DNA from: Candidatus Gottesmanbacteria bacterium RIFCSPHIGHO2_01_FULL_40_15
GTDB lineage: Bacteria > Patescibacteriota > Microgenomatia > 2-02-FULL-39-11
Assembly: GCA_001779115.1 (NCBI GenBank)
Contig: MFJF01000015.1
Coordinates: forward strand, 86,491 to 150,490
DNA length: 64,000 nt
Direction: 5' to 3'
The number at the start of each line of letters is the position of its first letter. Position 1 is the first letter of the stretch. The position numbers and the translations under genes are program-made. The notes below the pieces were generated by a model. That model did no database searches. It was not told where the DNA came from and worked only from the letters and a program-made list of their open reading frames with translations. Positions 6,652 through 61,387 of this stretch are shown here, one piece after another.

Positions 6652-8262
6652 TTAATTTATTTTATACAGGTAATAGCGGTTATTAAAAACTGCCGGAAGG
6701 GATCTGTAGAATACCGGAGAAACAATATAATCAGCTTTATATAGGCGGGCTAATGCGGTAATTGACGAAATGCTGTGGTTTTGATACCCCAGGATTATCT
6801 CTTCAAAAGAAATTTTATCCGCCGGGCATTTGGATATATTGCCCAATAAACACATCCGTTTATACCACTGGTAATAGTCTCCGGGATGAAATGGAAATGA
6901 TTTCCAGTCGGCTACAATGGCTCTTCCTGCCACCAGACGGAATTTTTCCAAATCAGGCGGAACCAAAAAAACAGCATCGGCAGGGGTATTTCCGCGGATA
7001 TATTCCTCAATTTCCGTTTCCTGGTCCCTGAACTGATAGTAGTTGGAAAAATTGAATTTCCCATGATATCGCCATAAGGAAAAATAAATAAGAAAAAGAG
7101 CTGTCAGAGCTGTTTTGCCGGTTCTGTTATAAAAAAGGATAAATAAAAATCCCAAAAAAACAGCTGCCAGCCCTGCTTTACCGCTGCCGGTTATTTTCCC
7201 GGCTACCGGCAGAAATACGGGAATAATGGCCAAATAGGAGGGTAGTTTATTGTTTTTTATCCCGTTAAAAATGACGGTTGTCAGTCCCGTCATCAGAAGC
7301 CAATATACATAAATTGTCAAACGGAATGGTTGCATAACCACCGGCAGGTAAAGGGGATAAAAATAGAGGGAAAAACTCCCCAGAATTATTAGAGCAGTAC
7401 AGATGGCAACAGCAGAATAAGTTAATATTTTAATTTTACCCGGCCAGTATCTTTTAAACTTTATAAATCCCAAAAGGGATATTGCCAAAAACAAAAAAAA
7501 CATAAGATAGTCGGCAAGGGGATAAGCCGTGGGCAAATAATGGTGCCGCCCGCGCATCATTGCCGGAATCTGGATCTTTAAAACACCTGGTATATTGTCG
7601 GCAGGCAGCGCACCGTATAAATAAATTAAAGGTATACAAATAATGAAAAAAGGTAATATACCCCGTTTTAATAAGTCCGGAATATTTTTTTTAAGACCCG
7701 TCACTGTTAAATAGACAAAGTAAGAAGTGTTAAAGATAAAAAACGATTCAAAACCGATAAGGGGATGGAAATAAGCTGAGATAATATACAAAAGGGAAGA
7801 TAACAGTATTTTATCCCGGAAAAGACATGAAATTGCCAAAAGCGAAAATGCCAATGACAGTTGGGTAACGGTAAAATCACCAGTCACCAGAATATTTCCT
7901 CCCAGGCTGAAGGTTTGCCCGAATAATATCACAATGACGGTTAGAATTGAGCTTAAATGGTCTTTGGCGATACTGTCCGATAGCTTATAAGTGGCTTGGG
8001 AAATAAGAAAAACGGTTACCACAAAATGAAAGAAAAAAATAACCGGCAAATTTGTAATTTGGTTTAGTCCGGCCATATAAACGGAAAAAAAATACCGCGG
8101 TCCGAATTTTGATGCCGTGTTAAGAAACCAGTCGTTGACCAAATAATTGCCGGAAATAAATCTTAGGATGATGGGGATCTGTTCATATTGGTTGCTTGAT
8201 ACAAAGGAATATTTATATAGAAAGGGGAATATCAGACTTAAAAAAACAATAGACCGAATCAT
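6652..8262 (-). CDS. Polytopic membrane protein with C-terminal soluble domain; candidate glycan polymerase (Wzy-like) or GT-C
   Basis: 536 aa with more than 10 TM helices and a roughly 130-aa hydrophilic C-terminus. It is the only minus-strand gene in the glycan locus and sits between two Wzx paralogs. The family could not be assigned by eye. Confidence 0.3.
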   Translation of the reverse strand: MIRSIVFLSLIFPFLYKYSFVSSNQYEQIPIILRFISGNYLVNDWFLNTASKFGPRYFFSVYMAGLNQITNLPVIFFFHFVVTVFLISQATYKLSDSIAKDHLSSILTVIVILFGQTFSLGGNILVTGDFTVTQLSLAFSLLAISCLFRDKILLSSLLYIISAYFHPLIGFESFFIFNTSYFVYLTVTGLKKNIPDLLKRGILPFFIICIPLIYLYGALPADNIPGVLKIQIPAMMRGRHHYLPTAYPLADYLMFFLFLAISLLGFIKFKRYWPGKIKILTYSAVAICTALIILGSFSLYFYPLYLPVVMQPFRLTIYVYWLLMTGLTTVIFNGIKNNKLPSYLAIIPVFLPVAGKITGSGKAGLAAVFLGFLFILFYNRTGKTALTALFLIYFSLWRYHGKFNFSNYYQFRDQETEIEEYIRGNTPADAVFLVPPDLEKFRLVAGRAIVADWKSFPFHPGDYYQWYKRMCLLGNISKCPADKISFEEIILGYQNHSISSITALARLYKADYIVSPVFYRSLPAVFNNRYYLYKIN

Positions 8263-8313
8263 ATCCGGATTATTTTACCATTAATTAAAGTTTAGTTTTA
8301 CAGAGTTTCAGGC

Positions 8314-8319
8314 TATAAT
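8314..8319 (+). promoter_or_regulatory. Perfect TATAAT -10 element 6 nt upstream of the Wzx(2) start codon (possible leaderless/short-leader promoter)
   Basis: 'caggcTATAATcgagccATG' in the 63-bp divergent intergenic region between the 6652-8262 (-) and 8326-9606 (+) genes. No SD sequence is visible. Confidence 0.3.
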
Positions 8320-8325
8320 CGAGCC

Positions 8326-9606
8326 ATGTCGCCAAAGATAAAGACATTCTTACCTGTTTTTTTCTCAGGCACCGCCAAAGATACCTATATAATTTTTACC
8401 GCCAACATTTTTACCTCATTTTTAGCGTTCCTTTATACCATTTTTCTGGCCCGGGCTTTTGATCCCCGGCTGTTGGGTATTTTTTCAGCCGTTACCGCAT
8501 TTATTCTTTTGACTTCAGATGTTCTTGATCTGGGAATCTCTGCATCCCTGTCCCGTTTTTATCCGGAAATAAAACGTAAAAGGGGAGAAGGAAACGCTTT
8601 ATCTTTTGCCGTTAATTCCTTCAAATTCCAACTCACCTTGACAATTGCCGTTATCCTTTTGATAATTATAACTTCCACAAATCTGGCTAATATTTTTCTG
8701 GAAGATTACCGCTTTTATTACCTTTACCTCCTTTCGGCTGCCGGAGTTTTGGGAACGGTTTTGACCGCCTTTGCCTCCGCTCTTTTGGCAGCCCGAAAAA
8801 AATTTATTGCCGTAGCCGTCATAAGCGTTACTTCCACTTTGACTAAACTGCTTCTTCTGGTATTACTTTTTTATCTCAACCGTTTTATCCTGTCTCTGGT
8901 TCTTCTCGCTTTCGTGGTTGCTTCATTTGTTGCTTTTTCTGTCTCTACCCGGTTTTTAAAACTGGCGCTTTTTAGGGATAAATTCAGCTTTATGGAATTA
9001 AAAAAACTTCTCTCATACTCCCTTTTTATTGCCTTATCCCGTATATTTTCCGCGGTATCGGGCAAGCTTGATGCTTTGATGCTTATTCCTCTTTCATCAG
9101 CTTTCGATGCCGGTATTTATTCCGCTGCCTACAAAATTGCCTTTACCTATATTCTTTTGGCCGGCAGTTTCAGTACTGTTATTGCTCCCAGACTGGCTTC
9201 ATTTAAAGATGTCGGACTGTCGCTTCCATATCTTAAAAAAATAATCCTGGCAACTATGCTGATACTTTTGTCTATGGTAGTCTTATATGCTGTCGCTCCG
9301 TTTTTTGTCGTCTTTATCCTTGGCCGCCGGTATGTTCTTTCTGTTGATGTATTCCGGTCTCTTCTGTTGCCGACCGCTCTTTTTGTCATGACTATTCCAT
9401 CAGTCAATTTTCTTCTTTACGTTCTGAAAAAACCCTGGGTATCAACATTCAATACTTTTATCTCTCTGGTAATCATGTTTTCCGGTAATTTATATTTCAT
9501 TCCGGCATTCGGGAGGTTCGGTCCTGTCTACAGCCTGACGGGAGCTTACGGATTTACCCTGATAAGCTCGGTATTCTTTGCCGTTTATTACTATTCAAAA
9601 TCATAA
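8326..9606 (+). CDS. Wzx-like oligosaccharide flippase (paralog 2)
   Basis: 426 aa with about 12 TM helices and N-terminal architecture parallel to the 5339 gene (AKDTYIIF.AN.....AF.....LAR.......G.FSAV..F.LL.SD.LDLGIS). Confidence 0.6.
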   Translation: MSPKIKTFLPVFFSGTAKDTYIIFTANIFTSFLAFLYTIFLARAFDPRLLGIFSAVTAFILLTSDVLDLGISASLSRFYPEIKRKRGEGNALSFAVNSFKFQLTLTIAVILLIIITSTNLANIFLEDYRFYYLYLLSAAGVLGTVLTAFASALLAARKKFIAVAVISVTSTLTKLLLLVLLFYLNRFILSLVLLAFVVASFVAFSVSTRFLKLALFRDKFSFMELKKLLSYSLFIALSRIFSAVSGKLDALMLIPLSSAFDAGIYSAAYKIAFTYILLAGSFSTVIAPRLASFKDVGLSLPYLKKIILATMLILLSMVVLYAVAPFFVVFILGRRYVLSVDVFRSLLLPTALFVMTIPSVNFLLYVLKKPWVSTFNTFISLVIMFSGNLYFIPAFGRFGPVYSLTGAYGFTLISSVFFAVYYYSKS

Positions 9607-37683: not shown

Positions 37684-38235
37684 ATGCAAAAAACTTATAA
37701 AACTGAAGTCATAATAATCAAAACATTTGATATGGGAGAAACAGACAGGCGCCTCACTGTTTTTTCCCGGCGTCTGGGTAAACTGATCGTAATTGCCAAA
37801 GGAGTGAGAAAAATTAACAGCCGCCGGGCTCCTTATCTTGATTTGTTTAGTCATCTGACCCTTTTTCTCTCAAGGGGCCGGACTTTTGATATAATTACGG
37901 ATGTGGCCCCCCTTAATGTTTTTTCAAAAATCAGGGAAAACCTGCCGTCGATTGCCGTTGCTTTTCATATGGCGGAGCTTACCGACAGGTTGCTGCCTGA
38001 ACGCTTTCCCCAACTTCAAATATTCTCCCGACTTCTCCATGACCTGATCATTCTGAATTCTGTGAAAAACGCTCAGTTAAAAGCTTTATGCGACAACTAC
38101 GGACTCTTTTTGCTTTGGGAACTTGGATACCTGCCACCGGCAACCGTTTTAACAGGCAGTAAATTGGACCGGTTTCTTGAAGAAGTAATGGAAAAAAAGA
38201 TAGAAAGCTCGCGTCTATTGACAAAATTGAGCTGA
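37684..38235 (+). CDS. recO: DNA repair protein RecO (short form, N-terminal OB-fold domain only)
   Basis: 'TEVIIIKTFDMGETDRRLTVFSRRLGKLIVIAKGVRK..SRR' matches the RecO N-terminal signature. The 183 aa protein lacks the C-terminal Zn-finger region. Confidence 0.65.
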   Translation: MQKTYKTEVIIIKTFDMGETDRRLTVFSRRLGKLIVIAKGVRKINSRRAPYLDLFSHLTLFLSRGRTFDIITDVAPLNVFSKIRENLPSIAVAFHMAELTDRLLPERFPQLQIFSRLLHDLIILNSVKNAQLKALCDNYGLFLLWELGYLPPATVLTGSKLDRFLEEVMEKKIESSRLLTKLS

Positions 38236-38262
38236 CCGATAAAATTATTTTGCCGTTCTCTT

Positions 38263-39619: not shown

Positions 39620-40069
39620 ATGAAAAAATTTATTATTCCGGGTCTTATTTTTTTCCTGATTTTAACTTCAACCATTTGGGTATTAGCCCGCTCAGGTAAA
39701 AAAGAGAGTGAAGTTGAAATTATCCCCACGCCAACAGTCGTTCTGCCCACCATTACCGATGACATCAAAATCGCACTCACCCCATTAAACAGTAACCGTC
39801 AGGTAGTTCTGAAAATTACCGGAATACCCCAAGATATTGAATCAATCGAATATGAATTGACTTATCTTACCGGGGATGGTTTACCGCGCGGAGTTTTGGG
39901 CCAGATAACCATTGACGGTGAAAGTGAAGTGGAAAGAGATGATATTGTTTTGGGAACCTGCTCAAGCGGCAGATGTGTTTATGATTCCGGGGTGGAATCA
40001 ATTGACTTGTCTTTGAAATTTAACGGCCGTTCCGGAGTCTCTGTTTACCGGAAAACATATAAGTTGTAA
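39620..40069 (+). CDS. Hypothetical membrane-anchored/secreted protein
   Basis: 149 aa with an N-terminal TM or signal helix. No recognisable family. Confidence 0.3.
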   Translation: MKKFIIPGLIFFLILTSTIWVLARSGKKESEVEIIPTPTVVLPTITDDIKIALTPLNSNRQVVLKITGIPQDIESIEYELTYLTGDGLPRGVLGQITIDGESEVERDDIVLGTCSSGRCVYDSGVESIDLSLKFNGRSGVSVYRKTYKL

Positions 40070-40091: not shown

Positions 40092-41693
40092 ATGATTTAC
40101 GTCTATATTGGTGATACAGCCATAGAGGTAGTTGAAACCAAAAAGCCTTTATTAACGGGTAGCGATAAAATAATCTCCTGTTCCCGAAAAATCCTATCCG
40201 AAAAAATTATTGAAGAAGGAAAAGTCACCGATGAACCCGGATTGATTGACGCGTTAAAAACTGCTTTAAAAAACGCTTATCCGGCAGAAATAAAAAATGG
40301 CGAGGTTGGAGCTGTAATACCGGATTTTAATATTACCGTAAAAAGAATTAATTTTCCGGCACAAACAAAACCGACCACGGAATTAATTCTTAGTGAAGCA
40401 AAAAAATATATTCCGGGCGATATCGCCGGTTATGAAAATTACTACAAGGAAGTAAAATCGGAAAGCGGAGTTCAAATCCTTTATACCGCCATTCCGGTTG
40501 ATTTAATTCTTTCATATGCCTCAATTTTTAAAAAGACCGGCCTCAATCTGACATTTTTATCTTCAACTTCATTTTCCCTTTATGCCCTTTTGCAAAACAG
40601 CGGTATTTTAGGCAGCGGGGTTTATTATGCCGACATTGGTGAAGACATAAAATTGTATCTTATGGATGCTATCGGCCCTTCAGGATTCTGGCATAAAAAA
40701 GTAACCGGCAAAACTTTTGTACCTGACCTCAAAGCTCTACTGAAAAAGGCGGTTGAAGAATCCGGCTTTTCAGGCTTGAGATTATTAATCGGCGGCGAAA
40801 AATCCCTGGAAGTTAATCCCCAGGAACTGACCAAAGCACTGGACACGGACACGTTGAAAATGGGACCGGTCCTGGACGAGATAGTCTCCAAAGAAAAAAT
40901 TAATTTCGATACCGGCGGCGTCCCGAGTGTTTACTTTGATAAAGTCTTGGGACTTATAAATCTGTCAAAGATGGCTGATGTGCCGAATTTTGCCGCTGAT
41001 TTAAAAAGTATCAGCAAAACAGGAAGTGTTGTGCCGGATCCCTCTCAGAAACCATCACTACCTATGGTAGTTGAAGAAGAAAAGGAAGAAAAACCAGAAC
41101 CGGAAGAAGAAAAAGTAAGGGAAATCTCCGAAGAAATAAAAGATACACCGGATGAAATTAAAGTTAAACCTTCTCCACTGATTACCGATAATATTATCGA
41201 ATACAAAAAATCTCCCTGGCAATCCGCCTTCAGCAGCCGTTTCCTGATATTAGGTTTATTCCTGTCAATAGCTCTTATTCTGGGCGGAAGTTTCCTGGTA
41301 ATCGGTCAAAGCGGTTCATTGAAAGTGCCTTTTATCTCATCACCGTCATTAACACCGACACCGACCCAGGTTCCTTCTGTTACCCCGACCCCGACGGTTG
41401 ATCCGAATTTGGAAAGAACTGATGTCACTCTTTCAGTCTTAAACGGTACGGATAAATCCGGCTTTGCCCGTACAGCTGCTGATGAATTGGAAAGTTTAGG
41501 ATATGAAGATATTAATGTCGGCAATGCTGATAAGGATGATTATCCAAAAACTGTAATAAGAATAAAGGATGAATCAAGAAAATACCTTCCGCTTATAATA
41601 AATGATCTGAAAGATAAATTTGACACCTCGACTGTCGAAACCCTCCAGGAAGATTCCCAGTACGACGCCGTTATAGTATTGGGCGCCTCCTGA
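40092..41693 (+). CDS. Fusion protein: PilM/FtsA-like actin-fold domain + acidic linker + TM helix + Pro/Thr linker + LytR_C domain
   Basis: N-terminal ~300 aa follow the PilM layout (IGDTAIEVVE...; AVIPDFNITVKRINFP; EAKKYIPGDIAGYENYY; KKTGLNLTFLSSTSFSLYALL). An EEEKEEKPEPEEEK low-complexity stretch follows, then a single TM helix (FLILGLFLSIALILGGSFLVIG), a TPTPT linker, and a C-terminal 'VLNGTDKSGFARTAADELESLGY...VIVLG' matching LytR_C. Confidence 0.45.
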   Translation: MIYVYIGDTAIEVVETKKPLLTGSDKIISCSRKILSEKIIEEGKVTDEPGLIDALKTALKNAYPAEIKNGEVGAVIPDFNITVKRINFPAQTKPTTELILSEAKKYIPGDIAGYENYYKEVKSESGVQILYTAIPVDLILSYASIFKKTGLNLTFLSSTSFSLYALLQNSGILGSGVYYADIGEDIKLYLMDAIGPSGFWHKKVTGKTFVPDLKALLKKAVEESGFSGLRLLIGGEKSLEVNPQELTKALDTDTLKMGPVLDEIVSKEKINFDTGGVPSVYFDKVLGLINLSKMADVPNFAADLKSISKTGSVVPDPSQKPSLPMVVEEEKEEKPEPEEEKVREISEEIKDTPDEIKVKPSPLITDNIIEYKKSPWQSAFSSRFLILGLFLSIALILGGSFLVIGQSGSLKVPFISSPSLTPTPTQVPSVTPTPTVDPNLERTDVTLSVLNGTDKSGFARTAADELESLGYEDINVGNADKDDYPKTVIRIKDESRKYLPLIINDLKDKFDTSTVETLQEDSQYDAVIVLGAS

Positions 41694-47958: not shown

Positions 47959-49212
47959 ATGCAATTCCTTAAGAATCTGGCCCATTTGTTAACAGCAATT
48001 CTTGCCTGTTTCTATTACCGCTTTCCCGGCCGTTCTTTGACGGTTGTCGGAATTACCGGTACAGACGGAAAAACAACCACAAGCTCACTGGTTTATCATA
48101 TTTTGGCATCAGCCGGATTGCCGGTAGCGCTGGTAACAACTGTCGGAGCAAATATCGGTAATAAATTCTATGACACCGGCTTTCATGTCACGACTCCTTC
48201 TCCTTTCAGTTTGCAGCGTCTGATGCGGCGCGCGGTTAAATCAGGCAGCCGGTATCTGGTACTGGAAGTCACGTCGCACGCCCTTGATCAGTTCCGGACA
48301 TTGGGTACCCCGATAAATATTGCTTTGATAACCAATATTTCCCATGAGCATCTGGATTACCACCGGACTTTTAACAGTTATAAAAATGCCAAAGCAAAAA
48401 TACTTCGCGGCGGGGGACTTGCCGTTTTAAACAGGGATGATAAAAATTATGATTACTTAAGGAAAAGGACAAAACGGAAAATTATCTCCTTTTCTCTTAA
48501 AGACAAGGCAGATTATACATATAAAGATTTCCCGTTCCGTTCGCTTTTATTCGGTAATTTTAACAAATACAATATTTTGGCAGCCTTTGCGGTTTCCGAT
48601 CTTTTAGGTGTGGAGGAAAAAACCATATACGGGGCAATAGCCGGATTTGAAGGTGTTCCCGGCCGGTTGGAAAATATCAAAAATAAACGCCGGATAAATA
48701 TTTTTATTGACTTTGCCCATAAACCCAATGCCCTCAAAGAAGTTATTTTAGCGGTGCGGACTAAAACTGAAGGTAAAACTATAGTCGTATTCGGTTGCGC
48801 CGGGTTAAGGGACAGGCTAAAAAGGCCTATTATGGGAGAAATTGCCGCGACGCACGCGGATTATACGGTGATTACCGCCGAAGATCCCCGGACTGAGGAT
48901 GTCAGGGTCATTATAAATCAGATAGCTGAAGGGTGTTTAAGAAAAAATGTCAAAGAGATGAAAAAAATTCAATATGGAAGAAAAAACCGACCCGAAGGGA
49001 AAATTCATTTTAAAATTCCCGATCGCCAGGAAGCTATTAATTTTGCCATCAGAGATCTGGCTAAACCGGGTGATACGGTAATAGTTGCCGGCAAAGGACA
49101 TGAAAAGTCCATGTGTTACGGTAAAATTGAATATCCCTGGGATGAAAAAAAGGCTATTTTAAAAGCTCTCTATGGTCCAGTCAAAAATTCTCAAAAAAAT
49201 ACCCTCGGTTGA
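47959..49212 (+). CDS. murE: Mur ligase, MurE-like (UDP-MurNAc-L-Ala-D-Glu:diamino acid ligase), lacking the usual N-terminal domain
   Basis: 'VVGITGTDGKTTT' P-loop, 'LEVTSHAL', 'NISHEHLDYH', 'VFGCAGLRDRLKRPIMGEIA' and 'AGKGHE' match MurE-specific blocks. The 417 aa protein has only about 30 aa before the P-loop. Confidence 0.65.
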   Translation: MQFLKNLAHLLTAILACFYYRFPGRSLTVVGITGTDGKTTTSSLVYHILASAGLPVALVTTVGANIGNKFYDTGFHVTTPSPFSLQRLMRRAVKSGSRYLVLEVTSHALDQFRTLGTPINIALITNISHEHLDYHRTFNSYKNAKAKILRGGGLAVLNRDDKNYDYLRKRTKRKIISFSLKDKADYTYKDFPFRSLLFGNFNKYNILAAFAVSDLLGVEEKTIYGAIAGFEGVPGRLENIKNKRRINIFIDFAHKPNALKEVILAVRTKTEGKTIVVFGCAGLRDRLKRPIMGEIAATHADYTVITAEDPRTEDVRVIINQIAEGCLRKNVKEMKKIQYGRKNRPEGKIHFKIPDRQEAINFAIRDLAKPGDTVIVAGKGHEKSMCYGKIEYPWDEKKAILKALYGPVKNSQKNTLG

Positions 49213-49834
49213 GCATTATTTCCTCAACCGCCGTGATTATTCCGCCAGGCGTTATAATGGTCTTATAAAAAAAAGCGTCTCACCGGAACAGGTCCACTCC
49301 AATAAAGTAGTCCGGATGGAAAAAAATTTCAGAAATAAAATATATACCGGTGCCGACGGCTTGATTGCCGATTTTCCGGTGAGTTTACTGATTAAAACAG
49401 CCGATTGCCTGCCGGTATTTATATGTAATCGGAACCCGCAAATGATAATTGCCCTGCACACCGGTTGGCGGGGTTTATTAAAAGGTATTATAGATAATAT
49501 AAAATTTTCAAAACTTGATAAGTCCGGACTGTCAGGCACGTTTGCCGCCATCGGACCTCATATCCGTTCCTGCTGCTACAAAGTGGAAAATGACGTCTTC
49601 GGAAAATTCAAAAAGTTGTTGCCTTCCACGGTTGGCTTTTTCCGCAACATAAACAATGATAAATATCTTGATTTGTCGGCTGTTGCTATCTTTCAGTTGG
49701 TGAGTGTCGGTCTTGCGCCGGAAAATATTGACGATGTTGCCGTTTGTACCTCATGCGATCCCGCTTACTATTCGTACCGCCGGGATAAAACCGATTACCG
49801 GAATTTCAATTTAATTAAACTTAAAAATGGTTAA
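49172..49834 (+). CDS. pgeF: YfiH/PgeF-family (DUF152) purine-nucleoside phosphorylase / peptidoglycan editing factor
   Basis: 'QVHSNKVV' and 'IKTADCLPVF' match the conserved His and Cys motifs of the YfiH/PgeF family. The true start is probably an internal Met downstream of the murE stop. Confidence 0.6.
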   Translation: MVQSKILKKIPSVEHYFLNRRDYSARRYNGLIKKSVSPEQVHSNKVVRMEKNFRNKIYTGADGLIADFPVSLLIKTADCLPVFICNRNPQMIIALHTGWRGLLKGIIDNIKFSKLDKSGLSGTFAAIGPHIRSCCYKVENDVFGKFKKLLPSTVGFFRNINNDKYLDLSAVAIFQLVSVGLAPENIDDVAVCTSCDPAYYSYRRDKTDYRNFNLIKLKNG

Positions 49835-53609: not shown

Positions 53610-54935
53610 ATGACCGAAGATGTAATTGCCGTTATTTTAGCAGCCGGAGATTCCGGTAGGCTTTGGCCGGTTAAAGATAAACTTAATCTGTATTTTGGGA
53701 ATATCACTCTGTTAAACCATTCGGTGCGTCAGTTAAAAAAAGCCGGAATCAGCCGCTTTATAATAGTCACCGGTAAAAAAAACAGACAGAATATTCAAAG
53801 TTTAATCCCGGAAAAAAATGCCGGAATTTCATTAAATCTGATTGTCCAGGAAAATAATTTGGGCATGGCCGGAGCTATTCTTGCGGCAAAAAATCTTATA
53901 AAGGACAATAAAATTATCGTTGTTGGCCCCTCCGATATTGTCGAGGATTATCTATTTTCAGATTTTAACCGGCTTTTAGCTGGCGACCCGGAAGGTATTT
54001 TTGTCGGCAAAAAGTTGGATTCTTACTCTCCATTGGGTTTTTACGATATTGACGCCGGTACGATTGCCGGTGTCAGGGAAAAACCCGGTCCCAGCAAGGC
54101 AAAAGGTAAACCGGCAGCCATTATACTGGATTATTACCGTGACAGTAATAAACTTTTAACGGCAATTTCGGCAGTCAGATCAACAACTGATGATATTTAT
54201 GAGAAAGCCAAAGACATACTGGTTAGAGACGGCCTTGTGATAAAGCTTTTAAACTATAACGGTTATTGGGGTTATATAAAATATCCCTGGCACATTCTTG
54301 AAGTTGCTTCCTATTTCCTGAATAAATTTCCCGACAAAAAAAATGAAGCGGTTCTCCATGAAACCGTTACAATACGGGGGCCTGTATTTATCGAAGATAA
54401 TGTTACCATCCTGGAAAATGTCAAAATTCTGGGGCCGGTATTCATCGGAAAAAGCAGTCTTATCGGACAAAATTGCCTTATACGGGAATCGGTAATCGGA
54501 GAAGGCAATATTATCGGATTCGGTTCGGAAATAACCAGATCCTATCTGGGATCAAACTGCTGGTTTCATCAAAATTATATTGGAGATTCGGTTGTTTTGG
54601 ATAATACTTCTTTCGGATCAGGTGCGGTAATTGCCAATTACAGGTTGGACGGGGGGAATATCATTTCTGAGGTTGAAGGCAAGAAAATTGACACCAACAG
54701 GACCAAGTTGGGAGCAGTTGTCGGCAGGAATGTCCGAATAGGTGTTAATTCTTCGGTTATGCCCGGAGTAAAAATCGGAGAGAATTCCTTTGTCGGTAGC
54801 GGTGTCGTCTTAAATAGTGATCTGCCTGAAAACAAATATATCGAAGTCCGAAAGGATTCTTACCGGGTTTTAAATAACAAGGTTAATCTAAAGACCGGCG
54901 CTATGGATAAAAATCTCGGAAATTTGAAATTTTGA
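53610..54935 (+). CDS. Bifunctional sugar-1-phosphate nucleotidylyltransferase + hexapeptide acyltransferase (GlmU-like)
   Basis: N-terminal 'IAVILAAGDSGRLWPV' NTP-transferase P-loop and C-terminal left-handed beta-helix repeats (VKILGPVFIGKSSLIGQNCLIRESVIGEGNIIG). It lies immediately upstream of glmS. Confidence 0.5.
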   Translation: MTEDVIAVILAAGDSGRLWPVKDKLNLYFGNITLLNHSVRQLKKAGISRFIIVTGKKNRQNIQSLIPEKNAGISLNLIVQENNLGMAGAILAAKNLIKDNKIIVVGPSDIVEDYLFSDFNRLLAGDPEGIFVGKKLDSYSPLGFYDIDAGTIAGVREKPGPSKAKGKPAAIILDYYRDSNKLLTAISAVRSTTDDIYEKAKDILVRDGLVIKLLNYNGYWGYIKYPWHILEVASYFLNKFPDKKNEAVLHETVTIRGPVFIEDNVTILENVKILGPVFIGKSSLIGQNCLIRESVIGEGNIIGFGSEITRSYLGSNCWFHQNYIGDSVVLDNTSFGSGAVIANYRLDGGNIISEVEGKKIDTNRTKLGAVVGRNVRIGVNSSVMPGVKIGENSFVGSGVVLNSDLPENKYIEVRKDSYRVLNNKVNLKTGAMDKNLGNLKF

Positions 54936-54980
54936 AACAAATTAAAAATTCTGTTGAATAATCACCAGTAGAGAAAAATT

Positions 54981-56783
54981 ATGTGCGGAATATTCGGATA
55001 TATCGGAAATAACAAACAGGCAGCCGATTTGGTCCTGACAGGATTAAAAAGCCTTGAATACCGAGGTTATGATTCATGGGGTATTGCCGCGGTAAACGAA
55101 GGTGGCCGAATTCTTCTCGAAAAAAAAACGGGTAAAATCGGAGCGGCTGAATTTAACTTTAAAAATCATAGCCGGATCGCTATCGGCCACACGCGCTGGG
55201 CTACTCATGGCGGGGTAACAGTTGCCAATGCCCATCCCCATCTTGACTGCACGGGCCACTTTGCCCTTATACATAACGGTATCATAGAAAATTATGATGA
55301 AATAAAAAAAGCGCTTCTAAAGATTGGTCACCGCTTTATATCTGAAACCGATTCTGAAGTAGCCGTGCATTTATTGGAAGAGAATTATAAAAGCCTTATA
55401 AAGAAAAATAAGACAAATTCACAAGACTCTCTTTTCGTCGAAGCACTTAAAATAACTTTTTCAAGTTTCCGGGGACTTAACGCGGTCATTGTCTTAAATG
55501 CGAAGAACCGGACATTTGGTGCTGCCAAAAACGGATCACCCCTTGTGTTGGGTTTTGGGAATAAGGAAAATTATCTGGCTTCAGACAGCCAAGCCATATT
55601 GCCTTATACGAATAAACTGTATTTTATGGAGGATCAGGAATTGGTATTAGTTACCAAGGATCAAATCAAGGTGTTCGATTTGATTTCCGGAAAGGAAAAA
55701 TCCATAAAGCCGGTTTCTGTTTCCTGGAAAACCGAAACTGAAGATAAGGGTAAATTGCCCCACTTTATGCTGAAAGAAATTTTGGATCAGGGAAAGGTAA
55801 TTAAAAACATCGTTACCGACTCCGATGAAAATATAAAAAAATTTGCTTCCCTTATTTCTTCATCCTTTGGAACTTACCTGGTCGGATGCGGAACGGCCGC
55901 CTATGCCTGCCTAACCGGTACTTATATTTTTTCTAAAATTGCCAAAAAACATGTTAATTTTTCAGTTGCCAGCGAATTCGGATATCTGATAGATTTTTTA
56001 ACCGAAAAGAGTCTGGTTATCGGCCTATCCCAATCAGGTGAAACAATTGATCTTATCGATGTCATGAAGAAAGCCAAAGAAAGGGGAGTTAAACTGGGGG
56101 CAATTGTCAACGTGTTGGGATCAACCCTTTACCGGATGACTGATAATAAATTGCTGTTAAACGCGGGAGTGGAAAAAGCAGTTGTATCAACAAAAGCTTT
56201 TACCGCCAAAATTGCCCACCTCCTTTTAATTGCATACGCTTTAACCGGTGACATCAATAAAGGGAAAACGGAACTTCGCAAGGCTGTAGAGATACTGGAA
56301 GAACTTTTTAAACCGTCATCCTTAAACGCGATAAAGACTCTTGCCACAAAATTATACCGCCATAAAAATATATATATTATCGGCCGGGGTATTTCTTATC
56401 CGATAGCCCTTGAATCTGCCTTAAAAATTAAGGAAGCTTCCTACATCCACGCTGAAGGTTTTGCCGGCGGTGAATTAAAACACGGGGTAATCGCTTTGGT
56501 TGAAAAAGGAACTCCCTGTTTGGCCTTTCTTCCTAATGATGAAACTTATTTTGATACGCTTTCGGGAGTCATGGAAATGAAAGCCAGAGGCGGCTTTATC
56601 ATCGGAATAGGTTTCAAAAACCATGAAGTATTTGATGAATTTATTAATTCCGGAGATTGTCAAATGGCCTCAGGCATCCCCAACGTCGTTGTCGGGCAAC
56701 TGCTCGGTTACTATTTGGCATTGTGTCATGGAGTTGATCCTGATAAACCCCGAAATCTCGCTAAATCAGTGACCGTCAAGTAG
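54981..56783 (+). CDS. glmS: Glutamine--fructose-6-phosphate aminotransferase
   Basis: N-terminal nucleophile 'MCGIFGYIGN' followed by two SIS domains. Confidence 0.9.
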   Translation: MCGIFGYIGNNKQAADLVLTGLKSLEYRGYDSWGIAAVNEGGRILLEKKTGKIGAAEFNFKNHSRIAIGHTRWATHGGVTVANAHPHLDCTGHFALIHNGIIENYDEIKKALLKIGHRFISETDSEVAVHLLEENYKSLIKKNKTNSQDSLFVEALKITFSSFRGLNAVIVLNAKNRTFGAAKNGSPLVLGFGNKENYLASDSQAILPYTNKLYFMEDQELVLVTKDQIKVFDLISGKEKSIKPVSVSWKTETEDKGKLPHFMLKEILDQGKVIKNIVTDSDENIKKFASLISSSFGTYLVGCGTAAYACLTGTYIFSKIAKKHVNFSVASEFGYLIDFLTEKSLVIGLSQSGETIDLIDVMKKAKERGVKLGAIVNVLGSTLYRMTDNKLLLNAGVEKAVVSTKAFTAKIAHLLLIAYALTGDINKGKTELRKAVEILEELFKPSSLNAIKTLATKLYRHKNIYIIGRGISYPIALESALKIKEASYIHAEGFAGGELKHGVIALVEKGTPCLAFLPNDETYFDTLSGVMEMKARGGFIIGIGFKNHEVFDEFINSGDCQMASGIPNVVVGQLLGYYLALCHGVDPDKPRNLAKSVTVK

Positions 56784-56795
56784 AATTTTGCATAA

Positions 56796-57527
56796 ATGAA
56801 TAAACCGTACATATTAATACTGCACGGCTGGAACCTGTCCGGAAAAAGATTTACTCCGCTGGTAAAATTTTTAAATCGCATGAACTTCAGGGCTTTTTCA
56901 CCTGATCTGCCCGGTTTTGGCAGGACACAAAAGCCGAAAAAGTTTTACATGCTTGATGACTATTGCCGTTTTGTCAATTCCTTTTTGGACTTAAAAAAGA
57001 TTGACAGCGTCGTCCTCGTCGGTCATTCTTTCGGAGGCCGGATCGCCATTAAAATGGCCGCCCGTTATCCTCAAAAAATTAAGGCAGTTATTCTGACCGG
57101 TACACCGGGGCTTTTGCCCGTAAAAAAGGTTAAAGTCCTTTTTTTCCTGGGACTGGCTAAAGCCGGCCGGTTGATTTTCTTACTGCCTTTCCTGTCAGTC
57201 CTTAAAAAAATTTTTCAGAAACTGCTTTATCGCCTGTCAGGTGCTGCTGATTACTATCATACAGACCAGCGGATGCGCCTGACTTTCCAAAATATCGTCA
57301 GGGAAGATCTCCGCGGATATTTGACTGAAATAGGAAAGCCTGTTTTCCTCTTGTGGGGAGGACGTGACAGGATTGTTTCACCAAAAATTGCCGTTGAAAT
57401 GAAAAACCTGGTAAAAGGCAGTGAACTGCAAATCGTCGATACACAGGGGCATGATTTTCCCTATATTAATCCGCAAATCTTCAGCAAAAAAATTGCACAG
57501 TTTCTGAAAAAGATACATGCTGTATAA
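56796..57527 (+). CDS. Alpha/beta-hydrolase fold protein
   Basis: 'ILHGWNLSGKRF' and the nucleophile elbow 'LVGHSFGGRIA'. Confidence 0.6.
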   Translation: MNKPYILILHGWNLSGKRFTPLVKFLNRMNFRAFSPDLPGFGRTQKPKKFYMLDDYCRFVNSFLDLKKIDSVVLVGHSFGGRIAIKMAARYPQKIKAVILTGTPGLLPVKKVKVLFFLGLAKAGRLIFLLPFLSVLKKIFQKLLYRLSGAADYYHTDQRMRLTFQNIVREDLRGYLTEIGKPVFLLWGGRDRIVSPKIAVEMKNLVKGSELQIVDTQGHDFPYINPQIFSKKIAQFLKKIHAV

Positions 57528-59133
57528 TTTTGTTCTCATTGTTTTTACCGCCGCGTTCATTTTTAGGACAGTCAAAACCCTTTTTTTCCATATTTTTCTG
57601 TGGCAGTTGAAAGAATTCCGTCCGGACAGAATTATTGCGCATCTGAAAACAGATTACGGCAAAAAGCTGCTGGTTAATCCTTTAAATATTATCAAATGGA
57701 TACTTTTTATTGTTATTTACTCAATTTCGCTTATAAATATAAACCTGGTGGAAGTTCCCTTCAGTTTCCACATTATTATTTATTCTTTTTATTTATTTTG
57801 GTTTATTTGGCTGATTGAAACTATTAGTATTCCTTTTGCCGTACTGCGATTAAGATTTAAATATCCCGTACCCACGGTAAAAAGCTTTTCAGTTCTGGTT
57901 TTTTCCTCAGTACTTTTACTTTTTCCCTTTATAAGTAACCCGCTTGAAGGCATGCTGCTCCTGGGCCCTCTTTTTGACCGGTTATTGCCCCTTTTTGTTT
58001 TTATTGCTGTTGTTCTGGTAAATATTCCGGCTCAAATTTATAAAGGACTGATTGTTTTTCTGGCAGCCAGAAAAATTAATAATTTCACTGGTGTGAGTAA
58101 AATCGCTATCACCGGCAGTTACGGCAAGACGTCCACCAAGGAATTTTTAGCGGCTCTGTTGATGTCAAAATACAAAACGCTTAAAACACCCGGAAGTTTC
58201 AATACCGACTATTCTGTTGCCGCATTTATTAACAGTAAATTAACTCCGGCTGATGATTTTCTCATTGTTGAAATGGGCGCTTATACCCGCGGAGAGATCA
58301 AAAGACTATGCCGGATTGTAAAGCCTGAGGCTGGTATCATTACCGGCATCGGATCACAGCATCTGGAGCTGTTCGGTTCCGTTTCCAATCTGATTTCGGC
58401 TAAGGCTGAGCTGATTACTGCTTTGCCCCAAAACGGTATAATTGTAATTAATGTTAACAACGTGCATTCAGGGAAAATTGAAAAAATTGCCAAAGAAAGA
58501 GGACTCCGGCTTATTACTGCGGATATAAAACGGGATGTCAGGGACGTAAAAATCGGAAAAAATTATTTATCTTTCAGCCTTAAATTAAATAAAAAGATTC
58601 TTCCTCTGAAGTTTAATCTGGCAGGAAAAAACAATTTAGAAAATCTGTTGTTGGCAATAAAAACAGCTTACGCATTTGGCATGTCTGAGTATGAAATTAA
58701 AAAAGCATCCCGGAATATCCGGCCTCCTCTCAAAACAATGAACGTCATAAAACAGACTTCCGATATAACCCTTATTGATGATACATTCAATGTCAATTAC
58801 GAGGGTATAATATCATCCGCCGCTTACATGAAGCTTTATAAAGGACTCCGGGTGCTTGTGTTAAATCCGATAATCGAATTGGGAGAGATGGCTCAGAATC
58901 TTCACTTTAAAATCGGAAAAGAATTAGGCCATGTTTGTGATTATTTGCTGGTAACAAACCGCAATTATTTTAACAATCTTTCGGAAGGCCTAAAAAAAGG
59001 CAACCGTAAAAATACCGTAATTCTTCCGGCTGATAAATTGTCGATATCGCAGGTCCGCCGGAAATTATTTTCCGATTCAGTAGTAATTTTTTCCGGAAAG
59101 GAATCGGCTAAATGGATCAAATATTTCAGTTAG
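57517..59133 (+). CDS. murF: MurF-like Mur ligase (UDP-MurNAc-tripeptide:D-Ala-D-Ala ligase) with an N-terminal ~180-aa polytopic membrane domain
   Basis: Residues 1-~180 form 4-5 predicted TM helices. Residues ~190 onward carry 'KIAITGSYGKTSTKEFLAALL' (MurF P-loop), 'IVEMGA' and a C-terminal Mur ligase domain. Confidence 0.65.
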   Translation: MLYNFVLIVFTAAFIFRTVKTLFFHIFLWQLKEFRPDRIIAHLKTDYGKKLLVNPLNIIKWILFIVIYSISLININLVEVPFSFHIIIYSFYLFWFIWLIETISIPFAVLRLRFKYPVPTVKSFSVLVFSSVLLLFPFISNPLEGMLLLGPLFDRLLPLFVFIAVVLVNIPAQIYKGLIVFLAARKINNFTGVSKIAITGSYGKTSTKEFLAALLMSKYKTLKTPGSFNTDYSVAAFINSKLTPADDFLIVEMGAYTRGEIKRLCRIVKPEAGIITGIGSQHLELFGSVSNLISAKAELITALPQNGIIVINVNNVHSGKIEKIAKERGLRLITADIKRDVRDVKIGKNYLSFSLKLNKKILPLKFNLAGKNNLENLLLAIKTAYAFGMSEYEIKKASRNIRPPLKTMNVIKQTSDITLIDDTFNVNYEGIISSAAYMKLYKGLRVLVLNPIIELGEMAQNLHFKIGKELGHVCDYLLVTNRNYFNNLSEGLKKGNRKNTVILPADKLSISQVRRKLFSDSVVIFSGKESAKWIKYFS

Positions 59134-59139
59134 TATCTT

Positions 59140-60396
59140 ATGTTCAAGCGCCCAATCGCCATCGGTTTATCCCCCAATAATCAGGCTGATGATCTAAAGT
59201 ACGTATATAAGGCATTATTCAGCCCCAACTGTTTTAAATCCGGTAAATTTACCGGTCTGCTGTCATCCTGGTTCATGGATTATCTGAAATCCGATAATGT
59301 GTTTTTTTTCAATAGCGGCAGATCGGCCCTTTTCTGTCTTTTGAAGAGCTTATCAATCGGTCCGGGAGATGAAGTTATTGTCCAGGCATTTACTTGTGTA
59401 GCCGTACCTGATCCCGTTATCTGGGTCGGTGCCAGACCCGTTTTTACCGATATCGACGCCAGTTTAAATATCAAAATAGAATCATTGGAAAAAGCTGTCA
59501 ACAATAAAACGAAGGCAATAATTGTTCAACATACTTTCGGAATTCCTGCAAATATTAACAAGATCAAAAAAATTGCTCAAAAATACGGTATTTACGTGAT
59601 AGAAGACTGCGCGCACTCCTTGGGAGCGGAATTGGATAATCGGAAAATCGGCGCATTGGCCGATGCTGCCTTTTTTAGTTTCGGCAGAGATAAGGTTGTT
59701 TCTTCAGTTTACGGCGGAGCCGCCGTAATTTATAATAATGATAAGGCAAAGCGTATACTTTCCCGCCTTCACCGCAGTCTTCCGAAACCGTCCCTCTTTT
59801 GGATTTTCCGGCAGCTTCTGCACCCGCTTGCTTTTTCAGTGATTCTGCCTTTTTATAATGTACATATCGGTAAAGTTATTCTGTTTCTGCTATTTAAGAT
59901 GAAATTGCTGCAAAAGCCCGTCGAGAAATGTGAACTTATTGCCGGAAAACCGGATAATTTTCCGGCGCAAATGCCGGATGTATTGGCCGGACTTCTCTTA
60001 AGCCAGCTGTTAAAACTGACGAAGTTCAATAAAAATAGAAAAAAAATCGCCGCCAGATATTTTGCCCGGTTAAAAAATTCCCCTGATTTCGGTCTGCCTC
60101 CGGAAATAAAAAATGCGGTATATCTGAGATTTAATATATTGACGGAGGACTCCGCAGATCTTTTGATTTATTTTAAAAAAAGGAAAATACTCCTCGGTAA
60201 CTGGTATAAAAATATTATTGATCCGAAAAACGTGTCTTTCAAAACTTTAGGGTTTAATCCGGATAAATTTATAAACGCACGAAAATTTGCCAGGTTAAGT
60301 CTAAATCTGCCGACTTATCCTAATATGTCCGTTGAAGACGCTGATTTAATTGTCAATCTTTTAAATGAATATGCAGATAAAAAACATCAACGATAA
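59140..60396 (+). CDS. DegT/DnrJ/EryC1/StrS-family aminotransferase (copy 3), embedded in the dcw cluster
   Basis: 'GPGDEVIVQAFTCVAVPDPVIWVGARPVFTDID', 'IIVQHTFG' and 'IEDCAHSLGAE' with a Lys-containing 'FSFGRDK' region. Confidence 0.75.
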   Translation: MFKRPIAIGLSPNNQADDLKYVYKALFSPNCFKSGKFTGLLSSWFMDYLKSDNVFFFNSGRSALFCLLKSLSIGPGDEVIVQAFTCVAVPDPVIWVGARPVFTDIDASLNIKIESLEKAVNNKTKAIIVQHTFGIPANINKIKKIAQKYGIYVIEDCAHSLGAELDNRKIGALADAAFFSFGRDKVVSSVYGGAAVIYNNDKAKRILSRLHRSLPKPSLFWIFRQLLHPLAFSVILPFYNVHIGKVILFLLFKMKLLQKPVEKCELIAGKPDNFPAQMPDVLAGLLLSQLLKLTKFNKNRKKIAARYFARLKNSPDFGLPPEIKNAVYLRFNILTEDSADLLIYFKKRKILLGNWYKNIIDPKNVSFKTLGFNPDKFINARKFARLSLNLPTYPNMSVEDADLIVNLLNEYADKKHQR

Positions 60397-61387
60397 AAAA
60401 TTATGGGAGGAGTTAATTTCCCGGTACTCTCCCCAAAGCTTCTTTCAATCCTGGACATGGGGTGAATCTGTCAGGTTGACTGGTCCAAATACTCAAGTCT
60501 GGCGCATAGCCCTGGTAACCGGTGATGGGGAAATTGCCGGTCTTTCCCAGATTGTCAAAGTTGTTGCCCGGCGCGGTATTCACCTGCATCTGCGTCACGG
60601 TCCCGTGCTGAAAAATTGGAAAAGGAAAAGTTTTCACTTTTTGTTGGAATATATTAAGAGACTCGCCTTGAGAGAAAAAGCCGCTTTTATCCGTTTCGGG
60701 CCTTTGATTGAAAATACTCCGGATCATCTAGCTTTATTTAAGAAAGCGGGTTTTGTTGATGCTCCAATTCACCGAATGAACGGAGAATTCTGTTGGGTGC
60801 TTGATCTGGATAAAAATGCGGATGAATTACTTAAAAATATGCGTAAAACTACCAGATATTTGATAAAAAAAGCAACAAATATGGGTGTTATCATCCGTCG
60901 GTCGGAAAGTCCGGGCGACATGGCCATTTTTAATAAATTATATGAAATTACAGCTAAAAGGCACGGTTTTGTCAGGCACAGGGAAGTCAAATGGGAGTTT
61001 GAAAAGTTTGTTAAAGAAAAAAAAGCTTTGCTGTTTTTAGGGGAATTTGAAGGGGAAATTAAATCCGCCGCCGTTATAATTTTTTATAACCATCAGGCAA
61101 TCTATCATCACAGCGCTTCAATCGAACAAAAGATACCTGTTAATTACCTCCTCCAGTGGCATGTTATTCTGGAAGCCAAAAAAAGAAACATGAAAATATA
61201 TAATTTTTGGGGAATAGCCCCGGATGAAAATCCCCGCCATCCCTGGACCAATCTCACTATTTTCAAAAAAGGTTTTGGCGGAAGAACGGTTGAATATATT
61301 CATGCCCAGGATCTGCCTGTGAACATTTTGGGCTATACGAAATCTTATTTATTGGATTATGGAAGAAAACTTCTGAAAGGTTACTGA
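60365..61387 (+). CDS. FemAB-family (aminoacyl-tRNA-dependent peptidoglycan branch peptidyltransferase) / GNAT-fold protein
   Basis: 340 aa. 'FFQSWTWGE...' N-terminus and a duplicated GNAT-like layout with 'AAVIIFYNHQAIYHHSAS' and 'YNFWGI' typical of the FemAB/MurM family. Confidence 0.6.
   Translation: MNMQIKNINDKKLWEELISRYSPQSFFQSWTWGESVRLTGPNTQVWRIALVTGDGEIAGLSQIVKVVARRGIHLHLRHGPVLKNWKRKSFHFLLEYIKRLALREKAAFIRFGPLIENTPDHLALFKKAGFVDAPIHRMNGEFCWVLDLDKNADELLKNMRKTTRYLIKKATNMGVIIRRSESPGDMAIFNKLYEITAKRHGFVRHREVKWEFEKFVKEKKALLFLGEFEGEIKSAAVIIFYNHQAIYHHSASIEQKIPVNYLLQWHVILEAKKRNMKIYNFWGIAPDENPRHPWTNLTIFKKGFGGRTVEYIHAQDLPVNILGYTKSYLLDYGRKLLKGY

Follow-up and report, generated by a model that had tools for sequence, protein, structure and literature searches.

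The window analyzed here is a stretch of 64,000 nucleotides from Candidatus Gottesmanbacteria bacterium RIFCSPHIGHO2_01_FULL_40_15, an uncultivated member of the Microgenomatia with a metagenome-assembled genome (assembly GCA_001779115.1, contig MFJF01000015.1, positions 86,491 to 150,490), with a GC content of about 40%. The analysis is centered on a single open reading frame (ORF) on the plus strand, which starts with ATG and encodes a protein of 533 amino acids (aa), here called the target. The ORF call agreed exactly with that of an earlier model-generated annotation of the same DNA, which we refer to as the original prediction. The target joins a PilM-type actin-fold domain to a LytR_C domain on the other side of a single transmembrane helix (Table 1). 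The components and the principle of fusing them are already known; the new element is LytR_C as the ectodomain of an otherwise PilMN-type protein, and a literature search found no paper in which PilM is paired with LytR_C.

Table 1. Features of the target and of its surroundings, with positions numbered from the first nucleotide of the window.
Feature	Residues	Position	Strand	Basis or remark
Wzy_C (O-antigen ligase/polymerase-like) and PMT_2 glycosyltransferase fusion, 1030 aa		23363..26455	+	
DUF4012 protein, 651 aa		35707..37662	+	
Upstream of glyS, candidate promoter with a sigma-70-like match of 11/12		38218..38245	+	Best consensus match; consensus match only
Membrane-anchored protein, 149 aa, no Pfam family		39620..40069	+	Syntenic homologs, 56% to 70% identical, in 8 related loci
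Target, whole ORF, 533 aa: PilM-like domain, PilN-like peptide, linker, transmembrane helix, stalk, LytR_C	1-533	40092..41693	+	
PilM-type actin-fold domain, predicted cytoplasmic	1-292	40092..40967	+	Foldseek, PDB profile matches, hhalign, motif statistics
'DVPNFAADLK', proposed equivalent of the PilN N-terminal motif	296-305	40977..41006	+	Conservation, position, pLDDT
Acidic low-complexity linker, predicted disordered and cytoplasmic	312-382	41025..41237	+	pLDDT 30 to 40; 24% D/E
Single transmembrane helix	383-405	41238..41306	+	Model helix; sole hydrophobic transmembrane segment
Pro/Thr/Ser-rich stalk, predicted extracytoplasmic	406-443	41307..41420	+	Low pLDDT
LytR_C domain, order beta-alpha-beta-beta-alpha-beta-beta	444-532	41421..41687	+	Pfam, model, Foldseek
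Multi-pass membrane protein with C-terminal TPR, 579 aa		41707..43446	-	
Protein without known domain, 262 aa		43586..44374	-	
Genes not usual in the dcw cluster, 2 segments		49172..49834 and 53610..61387	+	

The closest named homologs of the target were Gottesmanbacteria proteins, and 17 full-length relatives were 37% to 47% identical to it in sequence. Homologs were annotated at their source either as "hypothetical" or as "LytR C-terminal domain-containing". An exhaustive search of 1.84 billion representative sequences with the family profile gave 6161 matches at E ≤ 1e-3. Among the best 150 of these matches together with our earlier hits, 123 proteins contained both domains, and at least 108 of these were non-redundant full-length members (representatives at 50% identity) of about 440 to 600 amino acids, in which the PilM-like domain, 1 transmembrane helix, the stalk and the LytR_C domain followed each other in the same order. 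The counts out of 108 given below refer to these members. The named members, some of which were collected by a contig scan with narrow patterns that yields almost only Gottesmanbacteria, all belonged to the Gottesmanbacteria/Microgenomates, with the exception of one metagenome-assembled genome labeled "Gammaproteobacteria". It was noted that the locus in this genome (L005, contig CAYGXQ010000011.1, titled "uncultured Gammaproteobacteria bacterium") matched the Gottesmanbacteria loci in gene order, with protein identities of 55% to 75%, and the label is probably wrong.

The homology of the N-terminal domain to PilM is solid, in that 4 independent routes agree and the matches are far beyond chance. 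The target on its own was missed by the curated PilM models because the single sequence is too diverged: it scored 27.5 bits against TIGR01175 (pilM), for which the cutoff is 133, and gave no match to Pfam PilM_2 (PF11104). A profile of the 17 family sequences matched the Myxococcus xanthus PilM structure 3jc8 with an E value of 1.8e-7, and a profile of 29 diverse N-terminal domains matched only PilM chains in the PDB, namely 3jc8 (3.9e-18), Pseudomonas aeruginosa 5eox and 5eou (about 7e-16) and Thermus thermophilus 2ych (2e-9), with no FtsA chain at E ≤ 0.01. Of these 29 members, 16 individually passed Pfam PilM_2 (best E value 9.4e-26; P0060, for example, with 87.9 bits). The SHS2_FTSA and FtsA signatures of Pfam did not match the target, and PilM_2 was the Pfam family to which members were assigned. 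In an hhalign comparison with an alignment of canonical PilM proteins from the Candidate Phyla Radiation (CPR), the match had a probability of 98.9% and an E value of 1.6e-17; it comprised 289 columns and reached from column 22 to column 360 of the 363 in the template.

The structural comparison gave the same picture. The AlphaFold model of the full-length protein had a predicted local distance difference test score (pLDDT) of about 90 over residues 1 to 310, and a Foldseek search with this model placed PilM structures first, with E values of 2e-18 to 4e-16 (2e-18 to 3e-17 for 5eou, 5eoy and 2ych) and target-normalized TM-scores (TMt) of 0.56 to 0.68. FtsA structures ranked below them at 1e-14 to 1e-11, followed by the cytoplasmic domains of GspL/EpsL at about 1e-7. 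The target thus shares with PilM (2YCH, 5EOU, 3JC8; PF11104) an actin-like fold with an inserted FtsA-type 1C subdomain, and is homologous to it over the whole length of PilM. The original prediction had likened the first 300 or so residues to PilM and had proposed profile and structure searches of both terminal domains; these searches returned significant matches to PilM-type actin folds and to LytR_C. The differences from PilM are the membrane anchor and the ectodomain to which the domain is fused, the location outside any pilus locus, the low scores against the curated PilM models, the replaced residues of the nucleotide site and the loss of about 40 to 50 residues.

The original prediction had described the domain as an actin-like ATPase and had suggested that the conservation of its ATP-binding residues be checked. 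When this was done for the 108 members, the residues were found to be mostly lost, and the claim was not supported. In the target, the position of the phosphate-1 aspartate (D19 in P. aeruginosa PilM) is occupied by Tyr5 and that of Lys26 by Glu12, as judged from alignments with the P. aeruginosa and T. thermophilus proteins. The phosphate-1 aspartate was present in 21/108 members and a lysine equivalent to K26 in 26/108, and the phosphate-2 aspartate and glycine were retained in 30/108 and 19/108, respectively. The 'GG..S' strand was well retained (G235 in 103/108, S238 in 78/108), and the target has kept both D181-I-G183 and the strand motif G234-G235-E-K-S238. The hhalign comparison also showed that the family is without about 40 to 50 residues of canonical PilM, located between the strand at residues 196 to 203 and the 'GGEKS' strand, where the model has a single helix (residues 206 to 224). 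Subdomain 2B, as placed by the standard layout of the actin fold, helps to form the adenine pocket, and we interpret the missing segment as most of this subdomain.

Since key residues of the nucleotide site have been lost and a part of the presumed subdomain 2B is missing, ATPase activity is unlikely; the PilM-like domain most likely neither binds nor hydrolyzes ATP and would then be a nucleotide-free scaffold domain. Some distant members still carry the motifs 'IDISD', 'DIGAK' and 'GGGGS', and the ancestor was therefore probably a normal PilM from which the Gottesmanbacteria clade has degenerated. In T. thermophilus, the K26A substitution in PilM abolished ATP binding, and the mutant protein retained binding to PilF, an ATPase that it was also still able to stimulate when PilN was present (PMC6325625). 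It was also noted that several positions of the domain exceed the classical nucleotide-site residues in conservation. These near-invariant positions are R85 (95/108), Y118, D192 (103/108), G195 (102/108) and G287 (98/107), and they could form a family-specific interaction surface or a structural core.

Directly after the PilM-like domain, the family contains a short conserved peptide. In the hhalign comparison, the terminus of canonical PilM ('...VALGLSL') aligned with 'VLGLIN' at about residue 290 of the target, and the segment 'DVPNFAADLK' follows 6 residues on. Residues P298, N299 and F300 were invariant in the alignment of 17 sequences. Among the 108 members, the asparagine was present in 75 and a phenylalanine or leucine in 92, and these columns ranked 16th and 13th by entropy of approximately 300. 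The corresponding peptide reads 'LNLLRE', 'LNLAKE', 'INLARK' or 'FNLLKG' in distant members. We take the N-terminal consensus of PilN to be I-N-L-L-P, or 'INL(L/I)P'; a literature search on 'INLLP' was without result, and the motif may be compared with 'DINLIP' in one of the fusion proteins described below.

Two proteins matched by the profile of N-terminal domains proved to be PilMN-type fusions. P0177 contains a full PilM_2 domain, then VIGLALRGTDRSFLDKDINLIPFEIKKRE, which includes the motif 'DINLIPFE', and then a transmembrane helix, whereas P0179 contains PilM_2, the segment '...VNFNALP', a transmembrane helix, then a coiled coil and also a weak match to PilN (PF05137). In both, the motif is located at the same position as the 'PNF' peptide of the family, just past the last helix of the PilM domain. 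It has been shown for a T. thermophilus complex of PilM with a PilN peptide and for a P. aeruginosa PilM-PilN(1-12) chimera that the conserved N-terminal motif of PilN occupies a pocket in PilM (PMC5805733). In the AlphaFold model of the target, the peptide region is non-helical yet has a pLDDT of 88 to 94 at residues 291 to 300, and the model resembles PilN-bound PilM (5eou and 2ych; TMt 0.66 to 0.68) more closely than PilN-free PilM (5eox, 5eoy and 5eq6; TMt 0.56 to 0.63). Both features are consistent with a docked peptide. No alignment was found between the junction peptides and the 5EOU PilM:PilN(1-12) chimera, for which the queries were too short. The target appears to contain the N-terminal peptide of PilN and its transmembrane helix in cis, and in this reading the 'PNF' peptide would fill the pocket of the PilM-like domain that corresponds to the one for PilN.

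This qualifies the view in the original prediction that PilM usually acts with a separate PilN and that the combination seen here is not a described architecture. The pairing with LytR_C was indeed absent from the literature searched, but only the swap of the outer domain is new. The nearest known arrangements are those of GspL/EpsL in type II secretion and of the fusions P0177 and P0179, which like the target consist of a PilM-like domain, a PilN-type juxtamembrane segment, 1 transmembrane helix and an extracytoplasmic domain, and in which the cytoplasmic PilM-like domain need not bind nucleotide. Unlike them, the target has a LytR_C rather than a ferredoxin-like ectodomain, with no structural similarity found between the two, a long acidic linker predicted to be disordered, and no secretion or pilus genes nearby. 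The cytoplasmic domains of GspL were also weaker structural matches to the target than PilM.

The pLDDT values, the hydrophobicity scan and the amino acid composition bore out the central part of the architecture as first described, that is, an acidic linker, 1 transmembrane helix and a Pro/Thr linker. The acidic linker ends in a juxtamembrane motif, 'IIEYKKS', that is conserved in the clade. A single transmembrane segment was identified at the equivalent place in 108/108 full-length members, with Lys and Arg residues being more common on its N-terminal side (family means of 3.25 vs. 2.07). Pro, Thr and Ser make up 60% of the stalk in the target, and the family median was 56%. There was no signal peptide ahead of the PilM-like domain. 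Because of this absence, the bias in Lys and Arg, and the extracytoplasmic location of solo LytR_C proteins, we infer that the actin-fold domain is located inside and the LytR_C domain outside the membrane, as the original prediction had likewise inferred.

The C-terminal domain matched Pfam LytR_C (PF13399) with an E value of 6.1e-10 and 40.3 bits (gathering threshold 22.2), covering model positions 1 to 84 of 86. An AlphaFold model of residues 436 to 533, built from 18 sequences, had a mean pLDDT of 93. Foldseek gave only 2 significant matches in the PDB: 6q10 (E value 2e-4, query-normalized TM-score (TMq) 0.72, root-mean-square deviation 2.8 Å), which is the soluble domain of the ortholog of Rv2700 (Cei), and 2m5y (E value 8e-4), which is the C-terminal domain of Rv0431 (VirR). 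As modeled, the ectodomain has a true LytR_C fold and belongs with the "solo LytR_C" proteins. The target gave no match to the LCP catalytic domain (PF03816) at E ≤ 10, and the ferredoxin-like periplasmic domain of PilN/GspL is absent from it. We also considered that the LytR_C domain could be a diverged PilN or PilO fold, which was ruled out by Foldseek, where it showed no similarity with the domains that PilN, PilO or GspL/GspM have in the periplasm.

The expectation that LytR_C normally follows an LCP catalytic domain could not be upheld. Membrane-anchored solo LytR_C proteins such as VirR and Cei are known, and the short proteins inspected among the 6161 profile matches consisted only of a transmembrane helix and a LytR_C domain. 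Like the mycobacterial proteins VirR (Rv0431) and Cei (Rv2700), the target carries its LytR_C domain on a membrane anchor outside the cytoplasm and has no LCP catalytic domain; VirR and Cei have only short cytoplasmic tails, as compared with the PilM-like domain of about 300 residues in the target, and come from Actinobacteria rather than the CPR. VirR self-associates and binds Lcp proteins through its LytR_C domain, localizes to the nascent wall and affects wall permeability (PMC11832169).

Proteins of 261 to 281 amino acids that contain only a transmembrane helix and LytR_C were identified in the same or related genomes, at positions 8675-9520 on the minus strand of locus L016, where the 281-aa protein is encoded about 6 kb from a member of the family, and at 7806-8591 on the plus strand of locus L010. 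They are candidate LytR_C pairing partners. The idea that they are unfused PilN-like proteins with an 'INLLP' start was rejected, their N-termini being low-complexity tails that are either acidic or rich in lysine. Several proteins that were supposed to contain only the C-terminal domain in fact have very divergent PilM-like N-terminal domains.

The gene for the target is preceded by a glycan-assembly locus that occupies the window from position 1 to about 37.6 kb and extends for a further 10 kb upstream of it. This locus contains many genes for glycosyltransferases of families GT1, GT2 and GT4, 2 flippases, several methyltransferases, the Wzy_C-PMT_2 fusion, an initiating transferase of the Bac_transf type and the DUF4012 protein. 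It is followed by the genes for RecO and the glycyl-tRNA synthetase (glyS), the gene for the 149-aa protein and the target gene. The gaps are only 6 bp between glyS and the gene for the 149-aa protein and 22 bp between the latter and the target gene. The gene for the 149-aa protein is a probable operon partner of the target gene, and its product may be a functional partner of the target. On the other side lies the division and cell wall (dcw) cluster with the order mraZ-rsmH-ftsI-mur, which continues beyond the window with ftsW-murG-ftsQ-like-ftsA-ftsZ and includes a canonical FtsA of 397 amino acids, with the SHS2_FTSA domain, beside FtsZ. The last gene of the window was located on contig MFJS01000006.1 of assembly GCA_001779265.1.

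The flanking genes were compared with those of other members of the family. In 8 related loci from Gottesmanbacteria/Microgenomates, the gene for the 149-aa protein was located immediately 5' of the target gene, as was glyS wherever the contig reached that far, and in 6 of the 8 loci mraZ and/or rsmH-ftsI followed the target gene directly or past 1 short unmatched ORF. One Gottesmanbacteria homolog was located among genes for purine metabolism. The more distant members had other neighbors: an LTD-domain protein, dnaG and rpoD in locus L012; prfB, ftsE, ftsX and a C39-like peptidase in L015, with FtsE/FtsX 3 genes away; and trehalase and housekeeping genes in L016 and L017. The adjacency to mraZ and the dcw cluster is a synteny of the Gottesmanbacteria/Microgenomates loci and is not family-wide. 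The original prediction had placed the gene between the glycan locus and the dcw cluster and had considered that this would fit a scaffold linking cytoskeletal-type and envelope processes; the position is correct for this genome, but the dcw adjacency is limited to this clade, and the genome has an FtsA and an FtsZ of its own.

Taken together, we give an even chance to the explanation that the target is a bitopic inner-membrane adaptor of the PilM-PilN fusion type, similar to GspL, in which the outer domain of PilN has been replaced by LytR_C. The cytoplasmic PilM-like domain would serve as a nucleotide-independent platform for protein binding, as do T. thermophilus PilM K26A and GspL. With the 'PNF' peptide seated in the PilN pocket, either in cis or on a neighboring protomer, the domain would be fixed to its membrane anchor, and the disordered acidic linker would give it reach in the cytoplasm. 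The LytR_C domain would substitute for the dimerizing periplasmic domain of PilN and, held on the Pro/Thr stalk, might contact the wall or glycopolymer layer or pair with LytR_C domains of other proteins, a proposal modeled on VirR. Overall, a cytoplasmic partner would be coupled across the membrane to a wall-proximal assembly.

Several observations weigh against this adaptor or against an envelope function for it. The peptide motif is short (P-N-F as compared with I-N-L-L-P) and its resemblance to PilN could be convergent, and with D181-I-G183 and G234-G235 kept in the target some residual nucleotide binding is possible. The dcw synteny, being confined to one clade while other members are located beside unrelated housekeeping genes, may be neutral. 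Moreover, if Gottesmanbacteria have no canonical PilM, PilN and PilO, the target could be the only PilM of the pilus machine. No canonical PilM was encoded in the window or in the 321 kb of fetched loci, and a homolog search gave only PilM proteins from Dojkabacteria.

As to the process served by the adaptor, we slightly favor a paralog recruited to cell-envelope or wall homeostasis, at sites of growth or division, over a core component of pilus assembly. This preference follows from the absence of the family from pilus loci, from the presence of separate PilM, PilN and PilO in the pilus loci of the CPR, from the dcw synteny in the clade and from the proximity of ftsEX to one distant member. 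The competing explanation, which we regard as possible though clearly short of even, is that the target belongs to the machinery of a CPR type IV pilus or of a competence pseudopilus. As a PilMN fusion, it would use its LytR_C domain to anchor or align the basal body in the peptidoglycan, in a cell that is devoid of an outer membrane, PilP and PilQ. Its cytoplasmic domain would bind PilB, PilT or PilC in the way that PilM does. CPR bacteria rely on type IV pili without PilQ (PMC6744442), PilM proteins and fusions of the PilMN type are the nearest homologs by sequence as well as by structure, the PilN-like peptide has been retained, and the coupling of PilM to the PilF ATPase needs no ATP binding (PMC6325625).

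In a closed Microgenomates genome, PilM is listed in the single pilus locus and PilN and PilO are not (PMC7143001), and a PilN-like partner could thus be encoded elsewhere. However, none of the 13 distinct loci with a member of the family contained pilB, pilC, pilT, pilD, pilO or a pilin gene, whereas the pilus components of the CPR, including PilM, PilN and PilO, have been reported to co-localize (PMC6744442), and cultivated Saccharibacteria have separate PilM, PilN and PilO proteins in each pilus locus (PMC11623550). The difference in fold between LytR_C and the periplasmic domains of PilN, PilO and GspL/GspM also speaks against a pilus component.

It is rather unlikely, in our judgment, that the target is a regulator or accessory factor of glycopolymer attachment similar to VirR and Cei, in which LytR_C pairs with LCP ligases or LytR_C proteins of the glycan locus and the PilM-like domain provides only oligomerization or regulation. 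Cei and VirR are the sole structural neighbors of the ectodomain, the interaction of VirR with Lcp proteins and its effect on the wall would provide a precedent (PMC11832169), in this genome and in relatives the target gene comes after a glycan-assembly locus that exceeds 37 kb, and proteins with only a transmembrane helix and LytR_C, such as the one of 281 amino acids in L016, are numerous in related organisms. Against such a role, no LCP ligase or other protein with an LCP catalytic domain was encoded in the glycan locus, the window or any of the fetched loci, the window contains no second LytR_C protein, the genes for RecO and the glycyl-tRNA synthetase separate the target gene from the glycan locus, and the distant members do not adjoin glycan genes.

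The adaptor hypothesis may be extended, although we doubt that the extension holds, to a transmembrane "alignment complex" formed by the family, possibly together with the proteins that contain only a transmembrane helix and LytR_C, in which LytR_C-LytR_C pairing replaces the pairing of PilN with PilO. Least probable by far is the role of a second FtsA, a membrane anchor of the divisome by which FtsZ would be tethered or late division proteins brought in: the target shares with FtsA the actin-like fold with a 1C subdomain, FtsA structures are its second-best Foldseek matches and its gene is located directly upstream of mraZ near the dcw cluster in most Gottesmanbacteria loci, but the family profile matches no FtsA chain in the PDB at E ≤ 0.01, Pfam assigns PilM_2 and not FtsA/SHS2_FTSA to the members, the target has a transmembrane helix in place of the amphipathic helix at the C-terminus of FtsA, most of the 2B region appears to be deleted, the canonical FtsA adjoins FtsZ in the same genome and the dcw synteny is not family-wide. 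The 2B region of FtsA binds the tail of FtsZ, as in the Thermotoga maritima FtsA:FtsZ complex (4A2A).

If an alignment complex of this kind exists, it would be a previously unrecognized machine of the CPR, derived from PilMNO, by which a motor or scaffold in the cytoplasm is physically linked with the peptidoglycan or glycopolymer layer, and it could be the missing wall-spanning part of CPR type IV pili or a new envelope-organizing system at the division site. The CPR, or Patescibacteria, have tiny genomes, and their lifestyle relies on structures at the cell surface and on an envelope of unusual type. In this widespread family, a well-understood coupling module, PilM with the anchor of PilN, is joined to a wall-associated domain, which suggests that LytR_C may serve as a modular outer interaction domain beyond the LCP enzymes. 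The finding generates hypotheses and does not overturn current models.

Some further features of the region were noted. The 149-aa protein has an N-terminal transmembrane anchor, a beta-rich domain and a conserved pair of cysteines ('…GTCSSGRCVY…'), and across the related loci it is better conserved (56% to 70% identity) than the target (33% to 47%). The sigma-70-like match upstream of glyS is a candidate promoter for glyS, the gene for the 149-aa protein and the target gene. An ORF of about 205 codons before the target gene in some relatives was considered as a partner and set aside, since it encodes a hydrolase with a metallo-beta-lactamase fold and is probably unrelated. In the glycan locus, the gene for the DUF4012 protein directly follows that of the Bac_transf initiating transferase, and every syntenic locus from Gottesmanbacteria encoded a protein of 57% to 74% identity in this place.

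The 2 minus-strand genes between the target gene and mraZ had no counterparts in the fetched related loci. In these loci mraZ or rsmH comes directly after the target gene or past 1 short unmatched ORF, and the 2 genes are therefore an insertion seen only in this genome. The dcw cluster has been enlarged by genes that are not usual for it: a Cu-oxidase_4 (YfiH/PgeF-like) gene located between the genes for Mur ligases, followed by glmU, glmS and genes for an alpha/beta hydrolase, an extra protein of 538 amino acids with only the Mur-ligase-M domain, a DegT aminotransferase and a protein of the FemAB family. This gene set suggests modification of the peptidoglycan stem peptide.

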